From: a virus
Taxonomy: Duplodnaviria; Caudoviricetes
IMG/VR virus record: IMGVR_UViG_3300048060_000061
Location: 1-64,000 of that record
Reading direction: 5' to 3' (one strand)
DNA length: 64,000 nt
Shown in pieces: positions 15,855 to 55,720 of this stretch. The position numbers and the translations under genes were made by a program. Below the pieces are notes generated by a model. That model saw nothing but the letters and a program-made list of their open reading frames with translations, made no database searches and was not told the DNA's origin. Every line of letters begins with the position of its first letter. The first letter of the stretch is position 1.

Positions 15855-15979
15855 CGGTCCACCCCCACGCCTGTGGGGAAAACTGGTAAAGCTAAGATGT
15901 CAGGTGGTCTAACAACGGTCCACCCCCACGCTTGTGGGGAAAACGAAAGCTGCCATCTGTTCGGTCCACTCCCATACGC
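15855..15979 (-). CRISPR. Mini-array 1 (type I-E-like repeat) downstream of tnpB
   Basis: Two 29-nt repeats GTTTTCCCCACA(A/G)GCGTGGGGGTGGACCG (15855-15883, 15916-15944), a 32-nt spacer, and a half-repeat (15962-15979) with a 17-nt spacer. Confidence 0.9.
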
Positions 15980-17333: not shown

Positions 17334-17369
17334 TTTATTAGAATGTAAAGTAATTTCAGTCGGTTTATT

Positions 17370-17803
17370 CGGTCCACTCCTACGCTTGTAAGAAAAACGG
17401 ACAAACTTGTGTTTTAAGAAAAGGGCGGTCCACCCTCACGCTTGTGGGGAAAACCGTTACGCCTATTGCTACCACAGATGCCACTCCGGTCCACCCCCAC
17501 GCTTGTGGGGAAAACCCAAACACAGCGCAAGCTGCCACAAGTTGATCCGGTCCACCCCCACGCCTGTGGGGAAAACAAACATTATGACGGTCCACCCCCA
17601 CGCTTGTGGGGAAAACTCATCACAACGTTTGCAATCGGTCATATCGCACCGGTCCACCCCCACGCTTGTGGGGAAAACGTTGCCCTGAGATTTGTTGTTT
17701 TGAATAGGCGTACGGTCCACCCCCACGCTTGTGGGGAAAACTCATCACAACGTTTGCAATCGGTCATATCGCACCGGTCCACCCCCACGCTTGTGGGGAA
17801 AAC
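17370..17803 (-). CRISPR. Mini-array 2 (8 repeats, 7 spacers) upstream of tnpB
   Basis: Repeats start at 17370 (degenerate), 17426, 17487, 17548, 17588, 17650, 17713, 17775; spacers 27, 32, 32, 11, 33, 34, 33 nt. Confidence 0.97.
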
Positions 17804-17924
17804 ACTACTAACGTGTAACATTCACCCACACGCTATAATATTAAATTGTGAAGGTTTGACAGACAACCAAGCCAACGCTCTAGGGTTCACGTCTGTCCAG
17901 TCACCGGCGGACCTGCCGGCGATT
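17804..17924 (-). ncRNA. Scaffold copy 2 / array leader
   Basis: Hairpin CGCCGGC-AGGTCC-GCCGGTG, stem GACAGAC..AACC/GGTT..GTCTGTC, anti-repeat ACCTTCAC. Confidence 0.8.
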
Positions 17925-18063
17925 TGTTTTCTAATTCCAATCGGTTTAACTCAGCAACGACCAGCCGGTGAACTATTAACACCTGCGGTTCCTTGGTGAG
18001 TTTTTTGATTTGTCTGATTACTTCTAGGGTATCAACCCATAATTTTGTTGATTCTCGATCCAT
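17887..18063 (-). CDS. Small ribbon-helix-helix-like regulator (58 aa, not in ORF track)
   Basis: MDRESTKLWVDTLEVIRQIKKLTKEPQVLIVHRLVVAELNRLELE...: strand-helix-helix pattern; follows promoter at 18095-18122. Confidence 0.6.
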   Translation of the reverse strand: MDRESTKLWVDTLEVIRQIKKLTKEPQVLIVHRLVVAELNRLELENKSPAGPPVTGQT

Positions 18064-18288: not shown

Positions 18289-19890
18289 CTATTCTATCCT
18301 GTCAGCCTTTACAAAATCGCTTATCACTTGCGGCGTAGATGTATCAAACCCTATAACATCCAGCATACCACTATCTTCAGGGTCAGCAACACTAAATCCA
18401 CTGGGAGTCATCCCCACTACAACAAGCTTGGATGGAATTTCCATTTGATGGCGATATTGTTGCAGCGCTTGTACAGGATGGATATTACCAGCCCAGGTTT
18501 CATTATCCGTATAGACAATAAAAGTATCTATTTCAATTCCGTTTTGTAGCGCATACAACATTGGTAAAGCGCAATCGGTCCGCCCCCACGGAATATCATA
18601 TATCTGTTGGATAACATCATCTAATCGTTGTCGGGCGGATAAAGTGACCGGGATCATTTGATGACTAAAAGCCGTAATTATATGATGTGGTTCCATTCTG
18701 GCTGTAATCATAGCCATTGCTCCAGTAGCTTCGCGAGGTGTAATAGGCATCCCGGCGATAGTATTCCAACTCATTGAAGCCGAAACATCAAGAGCTAGCA
18801 TTGTCCGTTTATTAGTTATTTCGGTATTACCAAATGACAAATAGAAAGCCTCATCTAATGCGTTAATAATTTCAGTAATCGGTGACCAAGATAATCTGCC
18901 TTTCATTCCGTGACCCTGGGCGTAAATTTTTAGAGCTACCAAGATAGCCAAGGGATGAAGTCGCGACTTTTTGATATAGGCTTGATCAGTTAATTTACCG
19001 ATAATAAGGCTTGTTTCGTTCCCCATCGGTTTTAATAATCCCACCCGTGTCATTTTCCCTAAGTTTCGTATTAACGCCGTAAGAGGCATTTTTTGTAGAA
19101 GGGCGCTCCAAATGGCAGGCTCGTTAAGCCATTTGGTCGGGATCATTTCGCGAGTAAGACCTTCATCTAAAATAAGGGAAACTATAGCCAATTTGTTTGT
19201 GGCAACCTTGGCATGCTCAAAGGCGGCAATTAAATCTATATCGCCATATTTTGCTTCTGGGTTACCGACAATCCATTTATATAGGTCATTTCGCATATCT
19301 GCGTCCTTAGAATTATCCGGTATTGGATGGCTGAGGCGTAAAGCATCTCGATGACTCCATCCGTCGCGTTGCTGGTACTTAATTACTTGATAGGCCAGTT
19401 TATCGACAGGCATATAATTGTACCAATTAGCTACAGCCCGGCGTAAGCCTCGTCCCCAACCCCGAAAGCCCTCAACGTATTCAAGGAAATGGAAAAGGTG
19501 AGTACCAATGCGGGCCACTTGCGGAAGTACATCAAAGGCCGCCCGGCGCGTTTCAATATCTCCTATTCCAGCACATATAGCTAACGTAAACAAAGCTGGA
19601 TCGTTCTTGGGCGCTCGACCACCTTTACTGACTTCAACGACTTTAGCAACAACTTGTGGACCGTTATTTTTGATACAGCGTACCACTGCCTGCGCGTTAT
19701 CAATTGTTAATTTTCGTTCATTGGCATAGTAGGTCCCCCCCTCAGATCCCAGGACAAGAAAACGGTCCAGGCGTATCCAGTCATCGACTGCAAAGACATA
19801 CCCCCCGGCCGAATTTTTGACCATTTGTTTATCTGGAATTGCTTGGGTTTGTGGAGTTTGTCTGATTGAAAAATGCTGTCTGTATTTCAT
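18289..19890 (-). CDS. rsr: Ro60 / TROVE-vWA RNA-binding protein
   Basis: NSAGGYVF, RFLVLGSEGGTYY, GWGRGLRRAV, KYQQRDGWSHRD, MPLTALIRNLGKMT, vWA DVSASM, YTDNET, GFD; start placed at ATG 19890 after GGAG RBS. Confidence 0.95.
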   Translation of the reverse strand: MKYRQHFSIRQTPQTQAIPDKQMVKNSAGGYVFAVDDWIRLDRFLVLGSEGGTYYANERKLTIDNAQAVVRCIKNNGPQVVAKVVEVSKGGRAPKNDPALFTLAICAGIGDIETRRAAFDVLPQVARIGTHLFHFLEYVEGFRGWGRGLRRAVANWYNYMPVDKLAYQVIKYQQRDGWSHRDALRLSHPIPDNSKDADMRNDLYKWIVGNPEAKYGDIDLIAAFEHAKVATNKLAIVSLILDEGLTREMIPTKWLNEPAIWSALLQKMPLTALIRNLGKMTRVGLLKPMGNETSLIIGKLTDQAYIKKSRLHPLAILVALKIYAQGHGMKGRLSWSPITEIINALDEAFYLSFGNTEITNKRTMLALDVSASMSWNTIAGMPITPREATGAMAMITARMEPHHIITAFSHQMIPVTLSARQRLDDVIQQIYDIPWGRTDCALPMLYALQNGIEIDTFIVYTDNETWAGNIHPVQALQQYRHQMEIPSKLVVVGMTPSGFSVADPEDSGMLDVIGFDTSTPQVISDFVKADRIE

Positions 19891-19926
19891 AAATATCTCC
19901 TCTGGATAGTAATAAATTTGAACAAC

Positions 19927-19958
19927 AAAAAGAAGCCGGGAAATCCCGGCTTCTTTTT
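19927..19958. terminator. Bidirectional hairpin between Y RNAs and Ro60
   Basis: AAAAAGAAGCCGGG-AAAT-CCCGGCTTCTTTTT. Confidence 0.75.
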
Positions 19959-19964
19959 GTAATA

Positions 19965-20089
19965 TAGGCAAATTATTGAAATTGGGGCTTTTAGTGCTCT
20001 ACCACTGAGCTACCCGCCTTGGTAGGCGGGGCTGGATTTGAACCAACGACCACTCTCTTTCAAGGAGATAACCCAACATCGTCCGGCCC
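19965..20089 (-). ncRNA. yrlA: YrlA-like Y RNA with circularly permuted tRNA-like domain
   Basis: 5' GGGCCGGA and 3' AATTTGCC Ro-binding stem; T arm GTTGG-TTCAAAT-CCAGC, closed acceptor CCCGCC/GGCGGG, D arm GCTC-AGTGGTA-GAGC; adjacent to Ro60. Confidence 0.85.
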
Positions 20090-23669: not shown

Positions 23670-23790
23670 AATCGCCCGTAGGTTCGCGGGTGACTGGACA
23701 GACGTGAACCTTCTCGCATTAGCTCGGTTGTCTGTCAAACTTTCACAATTTAATATTTAAGCGTGTGGGTGAATGTTACACGTTAGTAGT
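23670..23790 (+). ncRNA. Scaffold copy 3 (orphan, no adjacent nuclease)
   Basis: CGCCCGT-AGGTTC-GCGGGTG hairpin, GACAGAC/GTCTGTC stem, ACTTTCAC anti-repeat; homologous to copies 1 and 2. Confidence 0.8.
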
Positions 23791-23944
23791 GTTTTCCCCA
23801 CAGGCGTGGGGGTGGACCGCGTTTGTCAAGGACTGCTACCAATTGGGACGTCAGTTTTCCCCACAGGCGTGGGGGTGGACCGACATTGCCGACGTGTACG
23901 GGATTAGTTTTATTGGTTTTCCCCACAGGCGTGGGGGTGGACCG
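23791..23944 (+). CRISPR. Mini-array 3 (3 repeats, 2 spacers)
   Basis: GTTTTCCCCACAGGCGTGGGGGTGGACCG at 23791, 23854, 23916; spacers 34 and 33 nt. Confidence 0.95.
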
Positions 23945-23970
23945 TAATTTTCCAGGATGTTCGTGATTTA

Positions 23971-47599: not shown

Positions 47600-50500
47600 A
47601 TGGCATTAGAACCTTCTGGAATATCACTACAAGCCAAAGGTTTCAAGGATTATGTTAAAAACCTTGATACCATAGAAAAGAAACAACGCGAAGCCTTTGA
47701 TACCGAATTTGAAGGAACCAGTAAATCATTTGCTCAGGTAACCAAAGCAGCTAAAGCCTACGAAAAGGAGCTAGCTGCCGTTGCTGCTGCCGAAAAAAAA
47801 GCACAACAAGAGGCAGAAAAATTAGCTCAGGCTCAGGTAAAAGCTGCCGAAACAGCCCGTACTGCACAGAAAAAACAGGCTAAAGAAGCTGAAAGAAGTA
47901 GACGGGCTGGGCGTACTCAGGTAGGTGAAGGTGTTAGAGCTATTGCGACCGGCGATATATCTGGCGGCTTAAAAAATGTCGTAGGCGGACTTAAAGCTAT
48001 CGGACCGGCGGCAGCGATTGCTACTGGCGGCCTTGCAGCAGTTGCAGCTGGCGCAGTCGTTGTTACTACTGCCGTAGGTGCGATTGGTGTAAGCGTTATT
48101 AATTTAGCTAAAGATACGGATACGGCAACAAGACAAATAGGAGCCGGTCTCGGAATTACAGCGGCGCAAGCAGCAGATAAATATAACAAATCAGTGCAGA
48201 ATATTTTCAAAGATAATCCACAAGCTCAGTTTGGGGAAATTGCGCAAGCAATCACGCTAACTGAGCGTGCGCTTGATGGTCTAACAGATAAACAATTAGA
48301 AAACATAGCAGGTCAGGCGATTAAAATTAGTGATCAGTTTGACCAAGATTTACCAAAAGTTATTGGAGCCTTTGAACAATCAATGGAACAATTAGGACTT
48401 ACTGGTGATCAAGCCGGTGACTTTATAACAGCATCTTTACAGAGACTTCCAGTTGATGATGCGATTGATAGTATTAACGAGTACAGTGGCACATTAGCAG
48501 ACATGGGATTCGCTGGTGATGAGGCATTTTCGCTTTTACTTGGTGGTGCGCAAGGAGCAATTCTAGGAACTGACCGTGCAATTGATGCAATAAACGAATT
48601 TAACATAAGATTTGTAGAGGGCGGTGATGATATAAAAGAAAGTTTTGCTACCCTCGGATTAAATTTTGATGAGTTTAGACAAGCAGCAGAACAAGGAACC
48701 GGAACGGCGGCGGATGCTTTTAAGGCTTTTATTCAACGAGCCGGAGAGGTTGATTTAAGTATTACTTCTAACAGAGCGGCTGTTAACGCGCTTGGTACTC
48801 AGTTTGAACAACTAAGTGCAGATACAATTAAAGCACTTGACCCTGACGCTATTGGCTTTGAAGATGTAGCAGGTGCGGCAGACAAACTTGATGAACGTTT
48901 TGATACATTAGGTGGAGCTTTTCAACAAATAAGAGCTGGTGCATTAGTAGCCTTGGCCCCCATTGGCAAAGTTGTCTTGGACCTTGCCAACTCAATCGTA
49001 CCAAAAATAAAAGCAGCCTTTGAGGCAGTAAGGCCAGCTATAGAAGCCTTTGCCGCCAGAGTTGTACCAGCATTTGAATTTGGCGCCGCTGCCCTCGGCA
49101 GATTAGGAGAAAGTCTCGGATTAGCCCGAGACGGAGCTTCAACATTTGAATCTGTGCTAAATGGAGTTGCCGTTGTAATCGAAGGTGTGGCAGGTGGTAT
49201 TGAAATCTTGGCCAGGGTTACCGAAACGTTCAGACAGATATTTGCATTTGCGCGCGCGGGCGCGGCGGCTTTTGGATCAATTATAAGCGATGTTTTTAGT
49301 ACTGCTATAAAAAGTATCGGCGCGTTAGGGGCGGCTTTTCTAAAACTCGTCAAACTTGATTTCGCCGGGGCAGGCGAAGCGCTAAAAGATTTTGAAATTA
49401 TTGGTATTGATGATGTTAATAAATCTTTAGATAAAGCTGGACAGGCGGCAATTAGTAAATTCAAGGAAATTGCTGTCGATGTAGAAGAAATACCGATCGA
49501 ACCAGTTATTGTACCGGAGGTTGAAATACCGGCAGGTATTGATACGGGATTAGCAAAACCATTTATTGAACAGACCCAGGCTATAAAACTTAGCGAAGAA
49601 GCCCTTGAATCCTATCAAGGTGCATTAAAACAGGCAGAAGATTTACAACGATCTTTCTCCCGTGAAGCTGAAGATAGTGCCTTAAAACTAATTCGCGCCA
49701 ATGAAGATATTGCCCGGTCGCAAGCCAAAGCGGAAAAAGATTTAGGTAGTAAACAGGCCAAGGATAGAGACAAACTTCTTGGTGATCAGATCCGAGAACT
49801 TGATGATTTTGAGAAAGATCGTAAGAAACAAATCGCTAAAGCCGAAGCGGATATTCGGCAAGCTCGAAAAGCGGCAGATGAGAAACGGAAACAAGATCAG
49901 GCGAAACTTCAAAGAGAATTAAAACAGGCGCAGGACAGTTTCAATTTATCTCAATTGCAATCTGAACGACGGTTCAAATTGCAGGAAACGAGGCTGATCG
50001 CAGAAGGCGATATTTTAGCCATACAGCAGCTTAGAGAAGATCAAGCCCTACAACGTCAAGAGGAAAAAGAAAACTTTGACGAGAGCCAAAAAGGGCGCAT
50101 ACAAAGTGCAGAGGAAACGCAGAAAGAGCAAGGCAAGGATTTAGAAAGCCAACTTAGTACGCTTAAGGCAAATCTTGAAGACCAAAAAGCGGAACTTTTA
50201 AGATCTTTTGATGAGCAGATAGAACAACAACGAATAGCACAAGCCGAAGAAAGAACATTACAGCAGCAAAAATTTGCGGAAGATGCCGCAGAACGACAAA
50301 TACAATTAGCCAGAGAAGAAGAAGATCGGCGTATCAGTCAACAAAGGCAGATTGAGGATCTGGGCCGGTCGTTGGCAGAACAAGCCGGGGTGACGGCTGA
50401 AGGGACTGCGGCTATAGCCGGCGAATTGGAAAAAGTCTTTGGTATTGATGGGGTAGCCGACAGTATCATGACCGGCTTTACCGAGAAAACTGAGAACGAA

Positions 50501-50929
50501 TTTACTGATTTGTTTGCGAATTTAGAGAAGACTGCTAGTGAAAGTAGCTTAAAGAAAATATTACAAGAAGTACAAGAAACAGCATTGCCAGGAACATTAA
50601 GGCCATCACCCAGTAGTGGAGGTGGAGGTTTCGGTTCTCGTATAGGCGGCATACCAGAATTTGGGGAGGGCGGTGTTGTCCCTGGCCCTGTCGGATCTCC
50701 CCAAATAATTCAGGCACATGGTGGAGAGACTATTTTTCCTACACAACAAAGATCATTTCAGATGATAGCGCCTGTGATTCCAAGTCAGAGCCTCGAGGTG
50801 CTCATGAGCGGTGGCTTTAATATAACTGGCGACGGGCAATCAAATGAGGCAATCCTACAGGCGGCAACTCAGGAGATGACAGAAAATTTCAGAATAGCAG
50901 TTCGTAGGTTAGCACGGAGAAATAACTAG
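47600..50929 (+). CDS. Tape measure protein
   Basis: 1109 aa Ala/Gly-rich helical protein, DSINEYS...DAINEF, long coiled coil, FGEGGVVPG..AHGGE. Confidence 0.9.
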   Translation: MALEPSGISLQAKGFKDYVKNLDTIEKKQREAFDTEFEGTSKSFAQVTKAAKAYEKELAAVAAAEKKAQQEAEKLAQAQVKAAETARTAQKKQAKEAERSRRAGRTQVGEGVRAIATGDISGGLKNVVGGLKAIGPAAAIATGGLAAVAAGAVVVTTAVGAIGVSVINLAKDTDTATRQIGAGLGITAAQAADKYNKSVQNIFKDNPQAQFGEIAQAITLTERALDGLTDKQLENIAGQAIKISDQFDQDLPKVIGAFEQSMEQLGLTGDQAGDFITASLQRLPVDDAIDSINEYSGTLADMGFAGDEAFSLLLGGAQGAILGTDRAIDAINEFNIRFVEGGDDIKESFATLGLNFDEFRQAAEQGTGTAADAFKAFIQRAGEVDLSITSNRAAVNALGTQFEQLSADTIKALDPDAIGFEDVAGAADKLDERFDTLGGAFQQIRAGALVALAPIGKVVLDLANSIVPKIKAAFEAVRPAIEAFAARVVPAFEFGAAALGRLGESLGLARDGASTFESVLNGVAVVIEGVAGGIEILARVTETFRQIFAFARAGAAAFGSIISDVFSTAIKSIGALGAAFLKLVKLDFAGAGEALKDFEIIGIDDVNKSLDKAGQAAISKFKEIAVDVEEIPIEPVIVPEVEIPAGIDTGLAKPFIEQTQAIKLSEEALESYQGALKQAEDLQRSFSREAEDSALKLIRANEDIARSQAKAEKDLGSKQAKDRDKLLGDQIRELDDFEKDRKKQIAKAEADIRQARKAADEKRKQDQAKLQRELKQAQDSFNLSQLQSERRFKLQETRLIAEGDILAIQQLREDQALQRQEEKENFDESQKGRIQSAEETQKEQGKDLESQLSTLKANLEDQKAELLRSFDEQIEQQRIAQAEERTLQQQKFAEDAAERQIQLAREEEDRRISQQRQIEDLGRSLAEQAGVTAEGTAAIAGELEKVFGIDGVADSIMTGFTEKTENEFTDLFANLEKTASESSLKKILQEVQETALPGTLRPSPSSGGGGFGSRIGGIPEFGEGGVVPGPVGSPQIIQAHGGETIFPTQQRSFQMIAPVIPSQSLEVLMSGGFNITGDGQSNEAILQAATQEMTENFRIAVRRLARRNN

Positions 50930-52485: not shown

Positions 52486-52548
52486 CCCCCAATCTAATAT
52501 GTGCTGCGCAAGCACTTACGAGTTTCCATTACCGATACCATACAAAAA

Positions 52549-52621
52549 TACCCCCGGCAGGACTCGAACCTGCATCTTCTGGGCCTAAACCAGATGCCTC
52601 TACCAATTGCGCTACGGGGGC
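52549..52621 (-). tRNA. tRNA-Leu (TAG) with short variable loop
   Basis: GCCCCCG/CGGGGGT, TCTGG-TTTAGGC-CCAGA, V loop AGAT, GCAGG-TTCGAGT-CCTGC. Confidence 0.85.
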
Positions 52622-52627
52622 ATAAAG

Positions 52628-52711
52628 CGGAAGGGGCGGGACTCGAACCCGCAGACGTTTTACCGCTTACCTCATTAGCAGTGAGGCTCCTTACCATTCG
52701 GACACCCTTCC
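52628..52711 (-). tRNA. tRNA-Ser (GCT)
   Basis: GGAAGGG/CCCTTCC, CCTCA-CTGCTAA-TGAGG, long V arm, G73. Confidence 0.9.
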
Positions 52712-52718
52712 AAAATAG

Positions 52719-52806
52719 CGGATGGAGTGGGACTTGAACCCACACGGCTTTTACACCCAACTGTTTTCAAGACAGTGGCCCGTAGACCCACTTGGCTTAT
52801 CCATCC
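52719..52806 (-). tRNA. tRNA-Ser (TGA)
   Basis: GGATGGA/TCCATCC, ACTGT-CTTGAAA-ACAGT, long V arm, G73. Confidence 0.9.
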
Positions 52807-52809
52807 AAA

Positions 52810-52894
52810 AGGGGAATGATGGAATTGAACCATCTGCTAACCACCTGTCATATTTAAGCAAGTGTTTTACAGACACCCGACAGGAACATTCCCC
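52810..52894 (-). tRNA. tRNA-Tyr(GTA)-like RNA lacking a canonical D arm
   Basis: GGGGAAT/ATTCCCC acceptor, GGGTGT-CTGTAAA-ACACTT, GATGG-TTCAATT-CCATC; only 9 nt between acceptor and anticodon stems. Confidence 0.7.
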
Positions 52895-52898
52895 ATAA

Positions 52899-52973
52899 TG
52901 GCCCCTCCCGGATTCGAACCGGGACTGTCTGCATTTTAAGTGCAGTGCCTCATACCAATTGCGCTAAGGGGCC
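52899..52973 (-). tRNA. tRNA-Leu (TAA) with short variable loop
   Basis: GGCCCCT/AGGGGCC, CTGCA-CTTAAAA-TGCAG, V loop ACAGT, CCCGG-TTCGAAT-CCGGG. Confidence 0.85.
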
Positions 52974-53106
52974 AAATTATCTTACCTGAAAGTCTACTTA
53001 AATCGTCTCAACTTCAAACCTACCGTTTCTATTTTCATTTACTTCCCTTTTATCACTAGCCATCATTTGCGATTAAAGTGTACGGTATAGGTATACCAGT
53101 TTTCCA

Positions 53107-53143
53107 TCGAACCGGGACTGTCTGCATTTTAAGTGCAGTGCCT
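53107..53143 (-). repeat. Exact 37-nt copy of tRNA-Leu(TAA) segment 52914-52950
   Basis: TCGAACCGGGACTGTCTGCATTTTAAGTGCAGTGCCT occurs at both positions. Confidence 0.95.
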
Positions 53144-53152
53144 GTTCTTTTT

Positions 53153-53426
53153 ACTTACTCACAAACGCCCGTGGGGAAACCATGCAACACCGGGCCTGAT
53201 TTCGGTTTAAAATCACTGATCCTCCAAACGCCCGTGGGGAAACCGACCTCCACAACCCACGATAACCGTTGAACCCACTGATCCTCCAAACGCCCGTGGG
53301 GAAACCGAATTGATCCTTATCAAAACAAACATCCCTGATCCTCCAAACGCCCGTGGGGAAACCTGTGAAGTGGGTTCGCGCATGTTCAACCGCGAACCTG
53401 ATCCTCCAAACGCCCGTGGGGAAACC
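53153..53426 (-). CRISPR. Mini-array 4 (5 repeats, 4 spacers) downstream of the C2c9/Cas12n-like gene
   Basis: 29-nt GGTTTCCCCACGGGCGTTTGGAGGATCAG at 53398, 53335, 53278, 53216 and degenerate 53153; spacers 34, 28, 33, 34 nt. Confidence 0.95.
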
Positions 53427-53526
53427 CCTGAAAAGAGCAAATAAAAAGGTAATTCGCTCACTGTTAATATCAGCCGAATAATCTTGGCTGCACGTAACTA
53501 GTGTCTTGGTTGAGCAGTCCCAACCG
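53427..53526 (-). ncRNA. Predicted omega/tracr-like RNA overlapping the 3' end of the nuclease gene
   Basis: Hairpin GGTTGGG-ACTG-CTCAACC, stems CACT.GTTA/TAAC.AGTG and CAGCC/GGCTG, then CCTTT..TGCTC complementary to repeat GGGCG..GGAGG. Confidence 0.55.
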
Positions 53527-54849
53527 TGCAGACTTTTCCTCTAGCCTGCGTTCAAATTGCCCGGTTCGTGCTAATAAAATTACCTTAACATCTTTATAAG
53601 GCGTAAATAACCGTATCTCAGGATCATTCAGCCTGGCCAAGATATTCCGAGCAGCATTTGTATCCGCTTGCAATACCTTCCCGTCGAAACAGTAAAACCT
53701 ATCCCCATTACGATGCCCCAATAGGATACCGTGCCGGGAATCAGTTTGCGAGGTATATGCAGCATTAACTGTTTTAATCGTAGAACCTCTACGATTAGAT
53801 ACCGATTCTATTGCCTCAGCTATAGCACCCTTCGTCCAACCAGCAAGACGGCGGTTTTGATTCTTGCCGTATGACTTGCCATTTATCGGGTTCGTTAAAT
53901 CTTCGGTGACTATAATGTCGGCCTTGTCAACTACTGAATGAGCCGCCTTGAAAATCTTGTCTCTTACATTGGCTGTATGTATACGCTTGCGCTCATCCAG
54001 CTTTTTACGCCCCAAGTTGTTTTTTAGAATATTATCACACTTATGGGGCTTCGCTTCCGCTATTGCCTTTAGCTTGTTTCTACGTTGATACTTGGTTTTA
54101 AGATAGTCTGATTCCTTACTTAACAATTCTCCTAGTCCTTCACCGTGGTGTTTCCCATCTGAATCTACAAAGACCTCAGTATAACCTTTATCAATTCCTA
54201 TAGTCCCATCACCACTGGGTCGAGTAACGCAAACCTTTTCCTCATCAATAGCATAATGTACTTCAATACGTCCATTACGTAGGATCAACCGAAGTGTTCC
54301 CGATGGAGTATTGTTGCTATTCAAAGGGATAGCTATGCGCTTCCCAGATTCCAAGCTCATTACCTTAAGCCAAATCTTACCACCCTTTTCAAAAGTCGTA
54401 TAGCATTGGGAATCCAGTACAATCTGATTATCAACCTTGGTTTTACCGTGCTTAAAATATTTACGCATCATACGACGCAAATAACTATCTTTCAACCAAT
54501 TGTCATATTTAAGCAGAGTATAAAGGCGTTTACGCTCGTCATTATCATCAGTCCTTTGGCGTATTGCCTTTCGCACTTTGACTTTGGCAGCTTCACGGTA
54601 AGTAACTATATCTGCGAAAGTATCTCTTAAGGTTTCATTCCGAAGACGGGCGGCAATATTAAAGTGCCTACCTTCGGCGGTCCATTGATTTCTTATTTGA
54701 CGGTGTGTTAATTCTACACCTTGGACTGAACCAAAGCGTTGCCAGACTTCAGCCCGTAGTTTGCCCAATCGACTAGCCATTTCAGTTAATTGAGCTAACT
54801 TTCCTTCATTAAGATTTTGGCTGTAGATAATCCGAGTAACTTTACTCAT
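53470..54849 (-). CDS. cas12n: C2c9/Cas12n (type V-U4)-like TnpB-lineage RNA-guided nuclease
   Basis: N-terminus KVTRIIYS..LNEGK...EVWQRFGS as I recall for the C2c9 clade; RuvC GIDKGY, TEDL, ADTNAARN; degenerate Zn finger; adjacent array. Confidence 0.7.
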   Translation of the reverse strand: MSKVTRIIYSQNLNEGKLAQLTEMASRLGKLRAEVWQRFGSVQGVELTHRQIRNQWTAEGRHFNIAARLRNETLRDTFADIVTYREAAKVKVRKAIRQRTDDNDERKRLYTLLKYDNWLKDSYLRRMMRKYFKHGKTKVDNQIVLDSQCYTTFEKGGKIWLKVMSLESGKRIAIPLNSNNTPSGTLRLILRNGRIEVHYAIDEEKVCVTRPSGDGTIGIDKGYTEVFVDSDGKHHGEGLGELLSKESDYLKTKYQRRNKLKAIAEAKPHKCDNILKNNLGRKKLDERKRIHTANVRDKIFKAAHSVVDKADIIVTEDLTNPINGKSYGKNQNRRLAGWTKGAIAEAIESVSNRRGSTIKTVNAAYTSQTDSRHGILLGHRNGDRFYCFDGKVLQADTNAARNILARLNDPEIRLFTPYKDVKVILLARTGQFERRLEEKSARLGLLNQDTSYVQPRLFG

Positions 54850-54856
54850 CAGATAC

Positions 54857-55048
54857 TTATACTACCTTGTCTTTCTTTTTTACCGTAGGTGGATTGACCT
54901 GAATATCACCGCTAATTCCCAACAGAATCAGAGCTTCAACATATGATTGCCAGCGAATAAAGCCAGATTTTTTAGCAATATCTATAAGTTTTTCTTTGAA
55001 ATCTTTTTCAATCCACATTTGGAGGTTGATTTGATTTTCACGGGTCAT
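54857..55048 (-). CDS. Ribbon-helix-helix-like regulator
   Basis: INLQMWIEKDFKEKLIDIAKKSGFIRWQSYVEALI; GAGGAG RBS; promoter TTGACA-17-TATATT at 55100-55072. Confidence 0.6.
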   Translation of the reverse strand: MTRENQINLQMWIEKDFKEKLIDIAKKSGFIRWQSYVEALILLGISGDIQVNPPTVKKKDKVV

Positions 55049-55133
55049 ATTTTTGCTCCTCAATCATATTCAATATACACCTCCTATACAGAATTGTCAA
55101 CTCTGGAATAGATATACTATAATTAAGCAAGAA

Positions 55134-55243
55134 TTGATAACTCTTGCTTAATTAGTTATAATGTAGACAAGCAAATATAGCCCGGCGCAAGCCTCGCACA
55201 CATCAGGTCCGGAAACTCACCTTCACGGTGAGTTTTTGTTTTT
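55134..55243 (+). promoter_or_regulatory. Structural-operon promoter/leader/terminator, copy C
   Basis: TTGATA-17-TATAAT with a different spacer but the same leader (AGCCCGGCGCAAGCCTCGC..CATCAGGTCCGG) and terminator. Confidence 0.75.
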
Positions 55244-55720
55244 ATGGCAACCGCTCCACTACCACAGGCAATAATAGATAGGATTACAGCGAGAAATCAG
55301 AGCGTCAGGTGGGCCGCAGTCTTACGCGAAGTAAGAGAATTTCGTGCCTACTGCTGCAATATTGATAGCGACGACATTATGAACGTCTCAAAAGAGCCGG
55401 TCGTCATTTTAACTCTGAGTCCAAATCCAATCTGCTTGGGTAGCGCAATGGCCTGGGATTTCACAGGCTCCTATGCTCCCGGCAGTACGGTAACTGGACG
55501 CGATATAAATTTTGGCGATACCAATACAGACAGCGGCGTATCTGGCAATCACACTTATGCAAGTGCAGGAACTTTCACAGTGACCGCTACGGTTACTGAG
55601 GGCGGAGGGACAACGCAAACAGTAACCGAAGAAGTAAATGTTATTGACTGTAGTGATTCACTTTTATTAAATAATATCTATGCCTCGACCGATGGGTCAG
55701 GTGTTTTTTATTGGGAGTGA
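55244..55720 (+). CDS. PKD (Ig-like) domain tail protein
   Basis: INFGD...HTYASAGTFTVTATV. Confidence 0.75.
   Translation: MATAPLPQAIIDRITARNQSVRWAAVLREVREFRAYCCNIDSDDIMNVSKEPVVILTLSPNPICLGSAMAWDFTGSYAPGSTVTGRDINFGDTNTDSGVSGNHTYASAGTFTVTATVTEGGGTTQTVTEEVNVIDCSDSLLLNNIYASTDGSGVFYWE

Follow-up and report, generated by a model that had tools for sequence, protein, structure and literature searches.

The genome of the tailed phage IMGVR_UViG_3300048060_000061 (Duplodnaviria; Caudoviricetes), a 103,196-bp virus record with direct terminal repeats that is rated complete, carries a locus in which a compact TnpB gene is followed by a short repeat-spacer array that lies inside the gene for the TnpB guide RNA (omega RNA). 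We analysed a window comprising positions 1-64,000 of this record, to which all coordinates refer unless a relative or the whole genome is named. Our preferred reading, to which we give a probability of roughly 60%, is that the locus is an immobilised TnpB module of the IS607 lineage that has turned into a miniature CRISPR-like system, i.e., a transposon-CRISPR intermediate of the TranC type.

The locus runs on the minus strand. A promoter-like site (TTGACA-17-TATATT; 55072-55100), with 11 of 12 consensus matches, lies upstream of an open reading frame (ORF) for a 63-aa ribbon-helix-helix (RHH)-like protein (54857-55048), which occupies the position of the IS607 transposase TnpA in relatives. 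The ORF for the 459-aa TnpB (53470-54849) begins seven bases further on, and a 43-nt gap separates it from the array (53153-53426). The omega RNA scaffold (53427-53529) comprises stems P1 and P2, a GCGAAUUA linker and the 5′ strand of a terminal hairpin (ACCUUUUU); it was delimited by alignment, covariation and a covariance model, and shares the last 60 nt of the tnpB ORF. Every element of the layout proposed in an earlier sequence-only reading of this DNA (RHH-like gene, nuclease, scaffold RNA and array) is present.

Lineage of the TnpB protein

Judged by its sequence relationships, the 459-aa protein is a TnpB of the IS607 lineage and not Cas12n. It scores 105.8 bits with the NCBIfam model NF040570 (guided_TnpB; cut-off 100), and its sole Pfam domain is TNB (PF07282; 39.8 against a cut-off of 26.3). 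Scores with the NCBIfam Cas12b and C2c8 models fell far under their cut-offs, while the C2c9 model gave no match at E 0.01 and the IS607_TnpB model gave none either. More than 1,760 homologues were found at E values up to 0.001. Many are 58-84% identical to the phage protein, many sit on contigs of 1.5-2.5 kb, and many are named IS605 OrfB family transposase by the depositing source; relatives are 439-475 aa long.

The RuvC triad, D220 (GIDKGY), E316 (VTEDL) and D396 (ADxNAA), is invariant in an alignment of 25 sequences, which bears out the retention of D/E/D noted in the sequence-only reading. The degenerate zinc finger noted there was likewise recovered: the CxxC pairs are replaced by YTSQxDSRxG...FYCFDG, and because this is common to all 25 aligned members, the missing cysteines are a family trait and not decay of the window copy. 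An AlphaFold (AF2) model of the protein (pLDDT 81.7) places D220, E316 and D396 at strand ends and a helix start, as the TnpB fold expects. Foldseek matches included Cas12f, the IS607 TnpB of ISFba1 (8iaz, E 6.5e-9), ISDra2 TnpB, Fanzor2 and LaTranC (9jfq), the last of which was only mid-ranking. Searching the PDB by sequence, with the single protein and with a family profile, gave no usable match; the best was 9kln at E 0.013, covering only the stretch from RuvC-II to YTSxxDSR. The family motif YTSQxDSRxG resembles YTSRQDSRTG of this 1,496-aa C2c1-like protein (hmmsearch E 0.013).

The sequence-only reading had likened the protein to C2c9/Cas12n (type V-U4), and the locus does share with such systems a miniature type V-like RuvC effector, a downstream array, a scaffold over the ORF end and the lack of an adaptation module. 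We nevertheless find membership of that group scarcely credible. The C2c9 model did not match, no Cas12n entry appeared among the 50 Foldseek matches listed, and neither sequence models nor folds show a preference for it. The nearest sequences, at 58-84% identity, are IS607 TnpBs of the same length, relative to which the protein has no REC/WED expansion, and the repeat is 29 nt long.

DNA was fetched for 30 related loci. In 11 of these (L001, L002, L003, L006, L013, L022, L028, L030, L032, L039 and L040), an IS607 serine recombinase lies directly upstream of tnpB and overlaps its start, and TnpA remnants are found in others. Three relatives carry arrays. L006 (78% identity) has an intact TnpA, which scores 214 bits on the IS607 transposase model NF033518, and its contig ends one base past the first repeat. 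L013 (78% identity) has a TnpA cut only by the start of its contig, followed after tnpB by two repeats and one 32-nt spacer. In L012 (80% identity), TnpA is reduced to a remnant and the array consists of two full repeats and a degenerate one, with two 32-nt spacers. TnpA is absent from the window, where the 63-aa RHH-like ORF takes its place.

In a maximum-likelihood tree, the array-bearing loci and P0002 form one clade (99/99) nested in array-less IS607 TnpBs. P0002 (84% identity) is known from its protein, with a 227-nt gap after the gene. Loci L039 and L040, at 71-73% identity, are array-less. An array is present in all four sequenced members of the clade, as against none of about 27 loci outside it. 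Grouping with array-less TnpBs borne by insertion sequences would have spoken against the sequence-only reading, and on this point the outcome is split. The protein does group with insertion sequence-borne and mostly array-less TnpBs, but its immediate clade is marked by the nested array. Two further contigs from Logan with an identical protein, L004 and L005, each begin some 408 nt upstream of tnpB and break off within a repeat or right where one ends; these ends may reflect spacer or flank heterogeneity in the sampled population.

The array within the omega RNA terminal hairpin

The canonical omega RNA, as seen in the array-less relatives, consists of P1 (GGUUG...CAACC), P2 around a variable hairpin, the GCGAAUUA linker, a terminal hairpin closed by CC...GG, and AACAG, after which the flanking DNA stands at the guide position. 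Compensatory changes were found at 8 of the 13 consensus P1/P2 pairs among 19 array-less relatives. Although its stem sequence varies, the terminal hairpin is flanked in all 21 folded array-less loci by unpaired bases, 3-5 nt in the 5′ direction and 4-5 nt (AACAG) in the 3′ direction. A covariance model built from array-less relatives alone matched the window at 53529-53414 (59.6 bits, E 9e-13). The corresponding match in L012 and L013 ends exactly at the end of repeat 1, and second, weaker matches in both loci terminate at the ancestral tail. With Rfam, searched at E values up to 1 for the window and up to 0.1 for six relatives, there was no match to RAGATH-18 or to any other guide-RNA family.

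The array contains four identical 29-nt repeats on the minus strand (R1, 53426-53398; R2, 53363-53335; R3, 53306-53278; R4, 53244-53216) and a terminal repeat (R5, 53181-53153), the last 9 nt of which are degenerate. Spacers S1-S4 are 34, 28, 33 and 34 nt in length and have no mutual similarity. Of the five repeats, it is the degenerate one that lies most distant from tnpB, as would fit an array transcribed from the gene side.

The array occupies the apical loop of the omega terminal hairpin, both in the window and in the three sequenced loci most closely related to it. All four loci have the same order, namely the scaffold up to the hairpin 5′ strand (ACCUUU...), TTTCAGG and then the repeats. 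Every repeat ends in GGAGG-AUCAG, which echoes the hairpin 3′ strand and tail (AAAGG-AACAG in the canonical omega RNA). The original 3′ strand can also be found beyond the array: the end ...AAAAAAGGAACAG, which is the omega end of all array-less relatives, follows the arrays of L012 and L013. The window keeps a remnant of it, TGAGUAAGUAAAAAGAACAG (53161-53142), with one G fewer than the relatives. As delimited by homology to these relatives, the ancestral 3′ strand and tail, ending in AAAAAGAACAG, span 53142-53165 on the minus strand and overlap the end of R5.

Folding of the first unit in the window, L006 and L013 gives ACCUUU:GGAGG pairing in which AUCAG and the spacer stay free, and this reproduces the canonical geometry. 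The number of consecutive scaffold-repeat pairs is 5, 5, 7 and 7 in the four loci. A U:G pair has become C:G in L006, and extra A:U and C:G pairs have appeared in L013. Between loci at 78-80% protein identity, the repeats drift in sequence except at the GGAGG-AUCAG end, which is invariant. In L013, the first repeat (L013:1845-1868) is missing 5 nt of the hairpin 5′ arm and keeps GGAGGAUCAG, which suggests that the 3′ end is the constrained part of the repeat. Apart from the 5′ strand of the terminal hairpin, which offers 5-7 nt, no anti-repeat is apparent. A long candidate anti-repeat inside the ORF, within the codons for QTDSRHGILLGH (-25.4 kcal/mol duplex), was rejected, given that 18.6% of 624 random 330-nt genome windows equalled it and that the motif is a conserved coding element found in array-less relatives too.

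These features bear on a rival view, in which the locus is an IS607 remnant that is decaying or purely selfish. On that view, the array would be a passenger or the scar of a recombination event involving a type I-E CRISPR array, and the TnpB would use at most a cis guide or the ancestral right-end guide. Such a remnant would be in keeping with a family that is overwhelmingly transposon-borne, with the loss of TnpA from the window, with tiny arrays that lack protospacer matches, and with the retention of the ancestral end in L012 and L013, which still look mobile. We consider it unlikely, as the ORF is intact with all catalytic residues, four repeats are identical over 29 nt and separated by unrelated spacers, the repeat end is invariant amid drift, and the window has more spacers than the transposon-borne copies.

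Directly after ...AAAAAGAACAG, at the ancestral guide position, BLAST against the genome identified a 35-nt exact copy of the phage tRNA-Leu(UAA) (53107-53141, minus strand; identical to 52914-52948), extending from the anticodon arm through the T loop. The intact tRNA-Leu(UAA) gene (52898-52974) is located 193 nt downstream of the copy, and the opposite end of the locus shows no 5′ tRNA half. Should the ancestral end still work, the phage would encode a guide that matches its own tRNA-Leu gene.

Composition and origin of the repeats

The phage carries four other units, each with a conserved structured leader or scaffold of roughly 115-125 nt and an array of 29-nt type I-E-style repeats (window 15855-15950 and 17360-17930 on the minus strand and 23690-23945 on the plus strand; genome 88340-88680 on the plus strand). 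The phage has no cas genes, and the Rfam CRISPR-DR families did not match these arrays. One 33-nt spacer is present twice in the 17-kb array (17618-17650 and 17742-17774). Among 401 sampled Chloroflexota genomes, 5 have chromosomal arrays of this repeat type (up to three mismatches allowed; 61-nt period), and one of the 5 holds 227 repeat copies and a Cas6e gene (178 bits). The I-E-style repeat of the phage is therefore a genuine type I-E-style repeat. From these repeat matches, Chloroflexota is a plausible host phylum, the search having covered this phylum alone.

Aligned in register, the TnpB-linked repeat matches the I-E-style repeat of the phage at 20 of 29 positions, with 15 matches in the first 17 and 5 in the last 12; none of 200,000 shuffles reached either 20/29 or 15/17. 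Seven of its last ten bases match the omega end. The hairpin typical of I-E repeats is weakened to -5.6 kcal/mol in the window repeat, as against -13.1 in the I-E-style repeat, and is strong in L012. On this alignment, the TnpB-linked repeat is a chimera that joins the 5′ part of an I-E repeat to the omega 3′ strand and tail. A chimeric repeat speaks more for the capture of a pre-existing array than for omega segments having been duplicated de novo, and the 32-nt spacers of L012 and L013 suggest that a type I-E adaptation complex supplied them. No chimeric repeat was found in the genomes of three relatives. A single contig from the JGI metagenomes matched it in a coding region with no array and was dismissed as a chance match.

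The same comparison is relevant to a different explanation, namely that the phage carries a conventional viral mini-array made up of host type I-E repeats, which the host Cascade processes and uses, and that the TnpB is a mere neighbour with a single omega guide. Viral mini-arrays that exploit host Cas proteins are established (PMC11656645), the phage itself lacks cas genes, the repeat length of 29 nt and spacer size of about 32 nt fit type I-E, and the first 17 nt are nearly identical to the I-E-style repeats of the phage and of Chloroflexota, including the genome with Cas6e. However, the last 12 nt, a segment that takes in the I-E 5′ handle, depart from the I-E repeat at 7 positions and correspond instead to the omega 3′ strand and tail, the Cas6e-type hairpin is weak, and neither Cas6e nor Cas1 was found in the phage. 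Nor would a chance neighbour be expected to recur at one and the same nucleotide of the omega hairpin in all four loci, which come from different samples and contexts and include bacterial IS607 copies. We regard this explanation as quite unlikely.

Proposed mechanism and points against it

In the transposon-CRISPR intermediate that we favour, the unit of RHH-like gene, tnpB and array would be transcribed from the promoter-like site at 55100, and TnpB would bind the scaffold. The single 5′ strand ACCUUU could then pair with the GGAGG of one repeat, restoring the geometry of hairpin plus AUCAG. This pairing may take place in cis, with the upstream part of the array looped out, or after cleavage as a split pair of tracr-like and cr-like RNAs. 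The spacer that follows the paired repeat would take the guide position, and RuvC would cut matching DNA beside a target-adjacent motif (TAM). Capture of the array from a type I-E array probably took place before the element ceased to be a transposon, and the I-E Cas1-Cas2 of the host would be the source of new spacers. In the phage, the transposase would have been replaced by the small RHH-like regulator and the array would have grown to four spacers, most likely aimed at competing mobile elements.

A tentative variant, which we consider less likely than not, is a multi-guide omega RNA without a true split into tracrRNA and crRNA. The entire array would be carried by one scaffold, in the loop of its last hairpin, which could be closed in cis by the ancestral end or by that of any repeat. 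Owing to the chimeric repeats, the class 1 Cas1-Cas2 of a host could supply a class 2 transposon nuclease with spacers, and would do so already in the mobile IS607 copies, giving a transposon adaptive guides. The ancestral guide lies beyond a 130-190-nt array in the transposon-borne relatives; should these still home, large insertions must be tolerated in the hairpin loop, and a multi-guide, giant-loop RNA acting in cis would then be plausible.

Several observations weigh against the transposon-CRISPR intermediate. The scaffold-repeat pairing is only 5-7 bp and includes G:U pairs, and the repeat's own hairpin is the lower-energy fold in L012. The promoter call made in the sequence-only reading holds as a match to the consensus only, because shuffled sequence is expected to yield just as many such sites as this region contains. 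Each array is very short, at 1-4 spacers, and none has a linked adaptation gene. Only four array-bearing loci are known and all are mutually related, so that the layout they share represents a single evolutionary event. Searches for the chimeric repeat in IMG/VR, in contigs of JGI metagenomes and in a sample of 151 genomes from the Caldilineales class were negative. The check that the sequence-only reading had proposed, a spacer search against phages and plasmids, yielded no protospacer in 50,697 phage records or 72,556 plasmids, and there was likewise none in the phage genome or, for S1 and S3, in IMG/VR. The array of L012 gave only a chance-level match (E 0.6). With no protospacer matched, no TAM is readable.

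The small RHH-like protein

The small ORF encodes 63 aa from an ATG preceded at 8 nt by the ribosome-binding site GAGGAG, or 68 aa from an upstream TTG. In its AF2 model, the 63-aa protein begins with an extended segment and continues with two helices, a topology compatible with RHH. The top Foldseek matches were nearly all RHH proteins (Arc, CopG, NikR and MazE9), each with an E value above 0.6. There was no match in Pfam, PHROG or NCBIfam, and a word-index search found no relatives; a full HMMER search found three, and the two whose contigs were looked up are not beside a TnpB but adjoin unrelated genes. The protein most likely regulates the operon. A 29-nt palindrome (55123-55151; 10-nt arms and a 9-nt centre) is situated between the divergent promoter-like sites of the small ORF and of a plus-strand gene at 55244, and could be an operator for the RHH-like protein or part of a leader element.

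A small RHH-like ORF also replaces TnpA in relatives on IMG/VR contigs (L009 and L014, which are the same locus, L021 and L033), all of which are array-less. Replacement of the transposase by an RHH-type gene therefore recurs in immobilised copies of the family. This recurrence, together with a proposed archaeal toxin-antitoxin module of RHH/MazE and TnpB (PMC10691335), would also be consistent with a toxin-antitoxin-like pair of the RHH-like protein and TnpB in which the array is secondary. Such a pair would be compatible with the transposon-CRISPR intermediate, but we think it very unlikely: the archaeal clade has His in place of the RuvC-III Asp and the window protein keeps D396, relatives of the small protein adjoin unrelated genes, and the nested array would be left unexplained.

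Relation to known systems

TranC systems were reportedly presented as transposon-CRISPR intermediates by Jin et al. in Cell in 2025. According to the available descriptions, their effectors fall among IS605 and IS607 TnpBs (PMC13565253; PMC13639567; bioRxiv 10.64898/2026.03.27.714800). As far as these descriptions go, the window locus resembles them in its TnpB-sized effector nested in IS605/IS607 TnpBs, in its short downstream array without cas1 or cas2, and in guide-RNA parts derived from the transposon right-end RNA; phage-borne examples such as CauTranC9 exist. It differs in three respects. The repeats of the clades described in the preprint are 32-38 bp long (bioRxiv 10.64898/2026.03.27.714800), whereas those of the window are 29 nt and I-E chimeric; the array of the window lies inside the terminal-hairpin loop, with the ancestral 3′ strand and guide position kept and with the 5-7-nt hairpin 5′ strand as the sole anti-repeat in evidence; and array-bearing relatives of the window TnpB still carry a transposase.

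With the IS607 TnpB of ISFba1 (PDB 8iaz; PMC11061315), the locus shares the fold, the RuvC triad, an omega scaffold over the 3′ end of the ORF and relatives with an upstream serine recombinase. It differs from it in the absence of TnpA, the lack of a RAGATH-18 match, the lost zinc finger and the array that interrupts the terminal hairpin. Viral mini-arrays that use host Cas proteins (PMC11656645) are similar in being short phage arrays with a host-type 5′ part of the repeat in phages without cas genes. In the window, by contrast, the 3′ end of the repeat is remodelled to the end of the TnpB guide RNA, and the array is part of the guide-RNA gene.

Whether type V arrays arose through duplication of omega segments or through capture of an existing array is debated (PMC10691335). 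The array-bearing clade offers a base-by-base picture that favours capture, in which an I-E-style repeat has been grafted onto the omega 3′ strand. The array sits in a presumably insertion-tolerant hairpin loop and the original transposon guide position is still in place. The clade spans stages that range from active IS607 copies carrying 1-2 spacers to the phage copy, which has four spacers and no transposase. A compact, zinc-finger-less putative nuclease of 459 aa with a defined scaffold is available for testing.

Genomic setting and further observations

The locus is bordered on one side by a tape-measure gene (47600-50929) and on the other by same-strand genes whose family matches are weak or absent. 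Four clustered tRNA genes (52548-52974) run co-directionally with it. Base composition does not mark the cassette as foreign, and related phages without the insert, sought via a neighbouring 427-aa protein, were not found. Cas1 and Cas6e searches of the 103,196-bp genome were empty, in agreement with the earlier statement that the phage lacks adaptation genes.

The phage genome contains exactly two genes with the TNB domain. The second TnpB, at 16 kb (17333-16059), is of the IS200/IS605 type, and no relatives of it were found in IMG/VR. BLASTP detected no similarity between it and the 459-aa TnpB, as expected from the proposal that the two represent different lineages. The further claim that they were separately domesticated is only partly right, because the array of the 459-aa TnpB was probably acquired at the IS607-transposon stage (two array-bearing relatives keep TnpA). 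Both TnpB-array units have 29-nt repeats with an I-E-style 5′ half and a 3′ part that matches the end of the effector's own scaffold. In the 16-kb unit, separate scaffold copies head several arrays, in contrast to the one scaffold with a nested array described here. A single phage therefore holds two unrelated TnpBs, both with the same repeat type.

Two other features of the phage were noted. Between tRNA-Ser and tRNA-Leu, a match to the tRNA-Sec model (52810-52895, minus strand) scored 28.6 bits, under the threshold of 47, with no ARAGORN call. The phage also encodes a Ro60/TROVE gene (18289-19971, minus strand; Pfam E 4e-68), and just upstream of it lies an Rfam match to YrlA, a Y RNA-like family (19963-20089, minus strand), with a score of 47.5 bits that is under the gathering score of 69.

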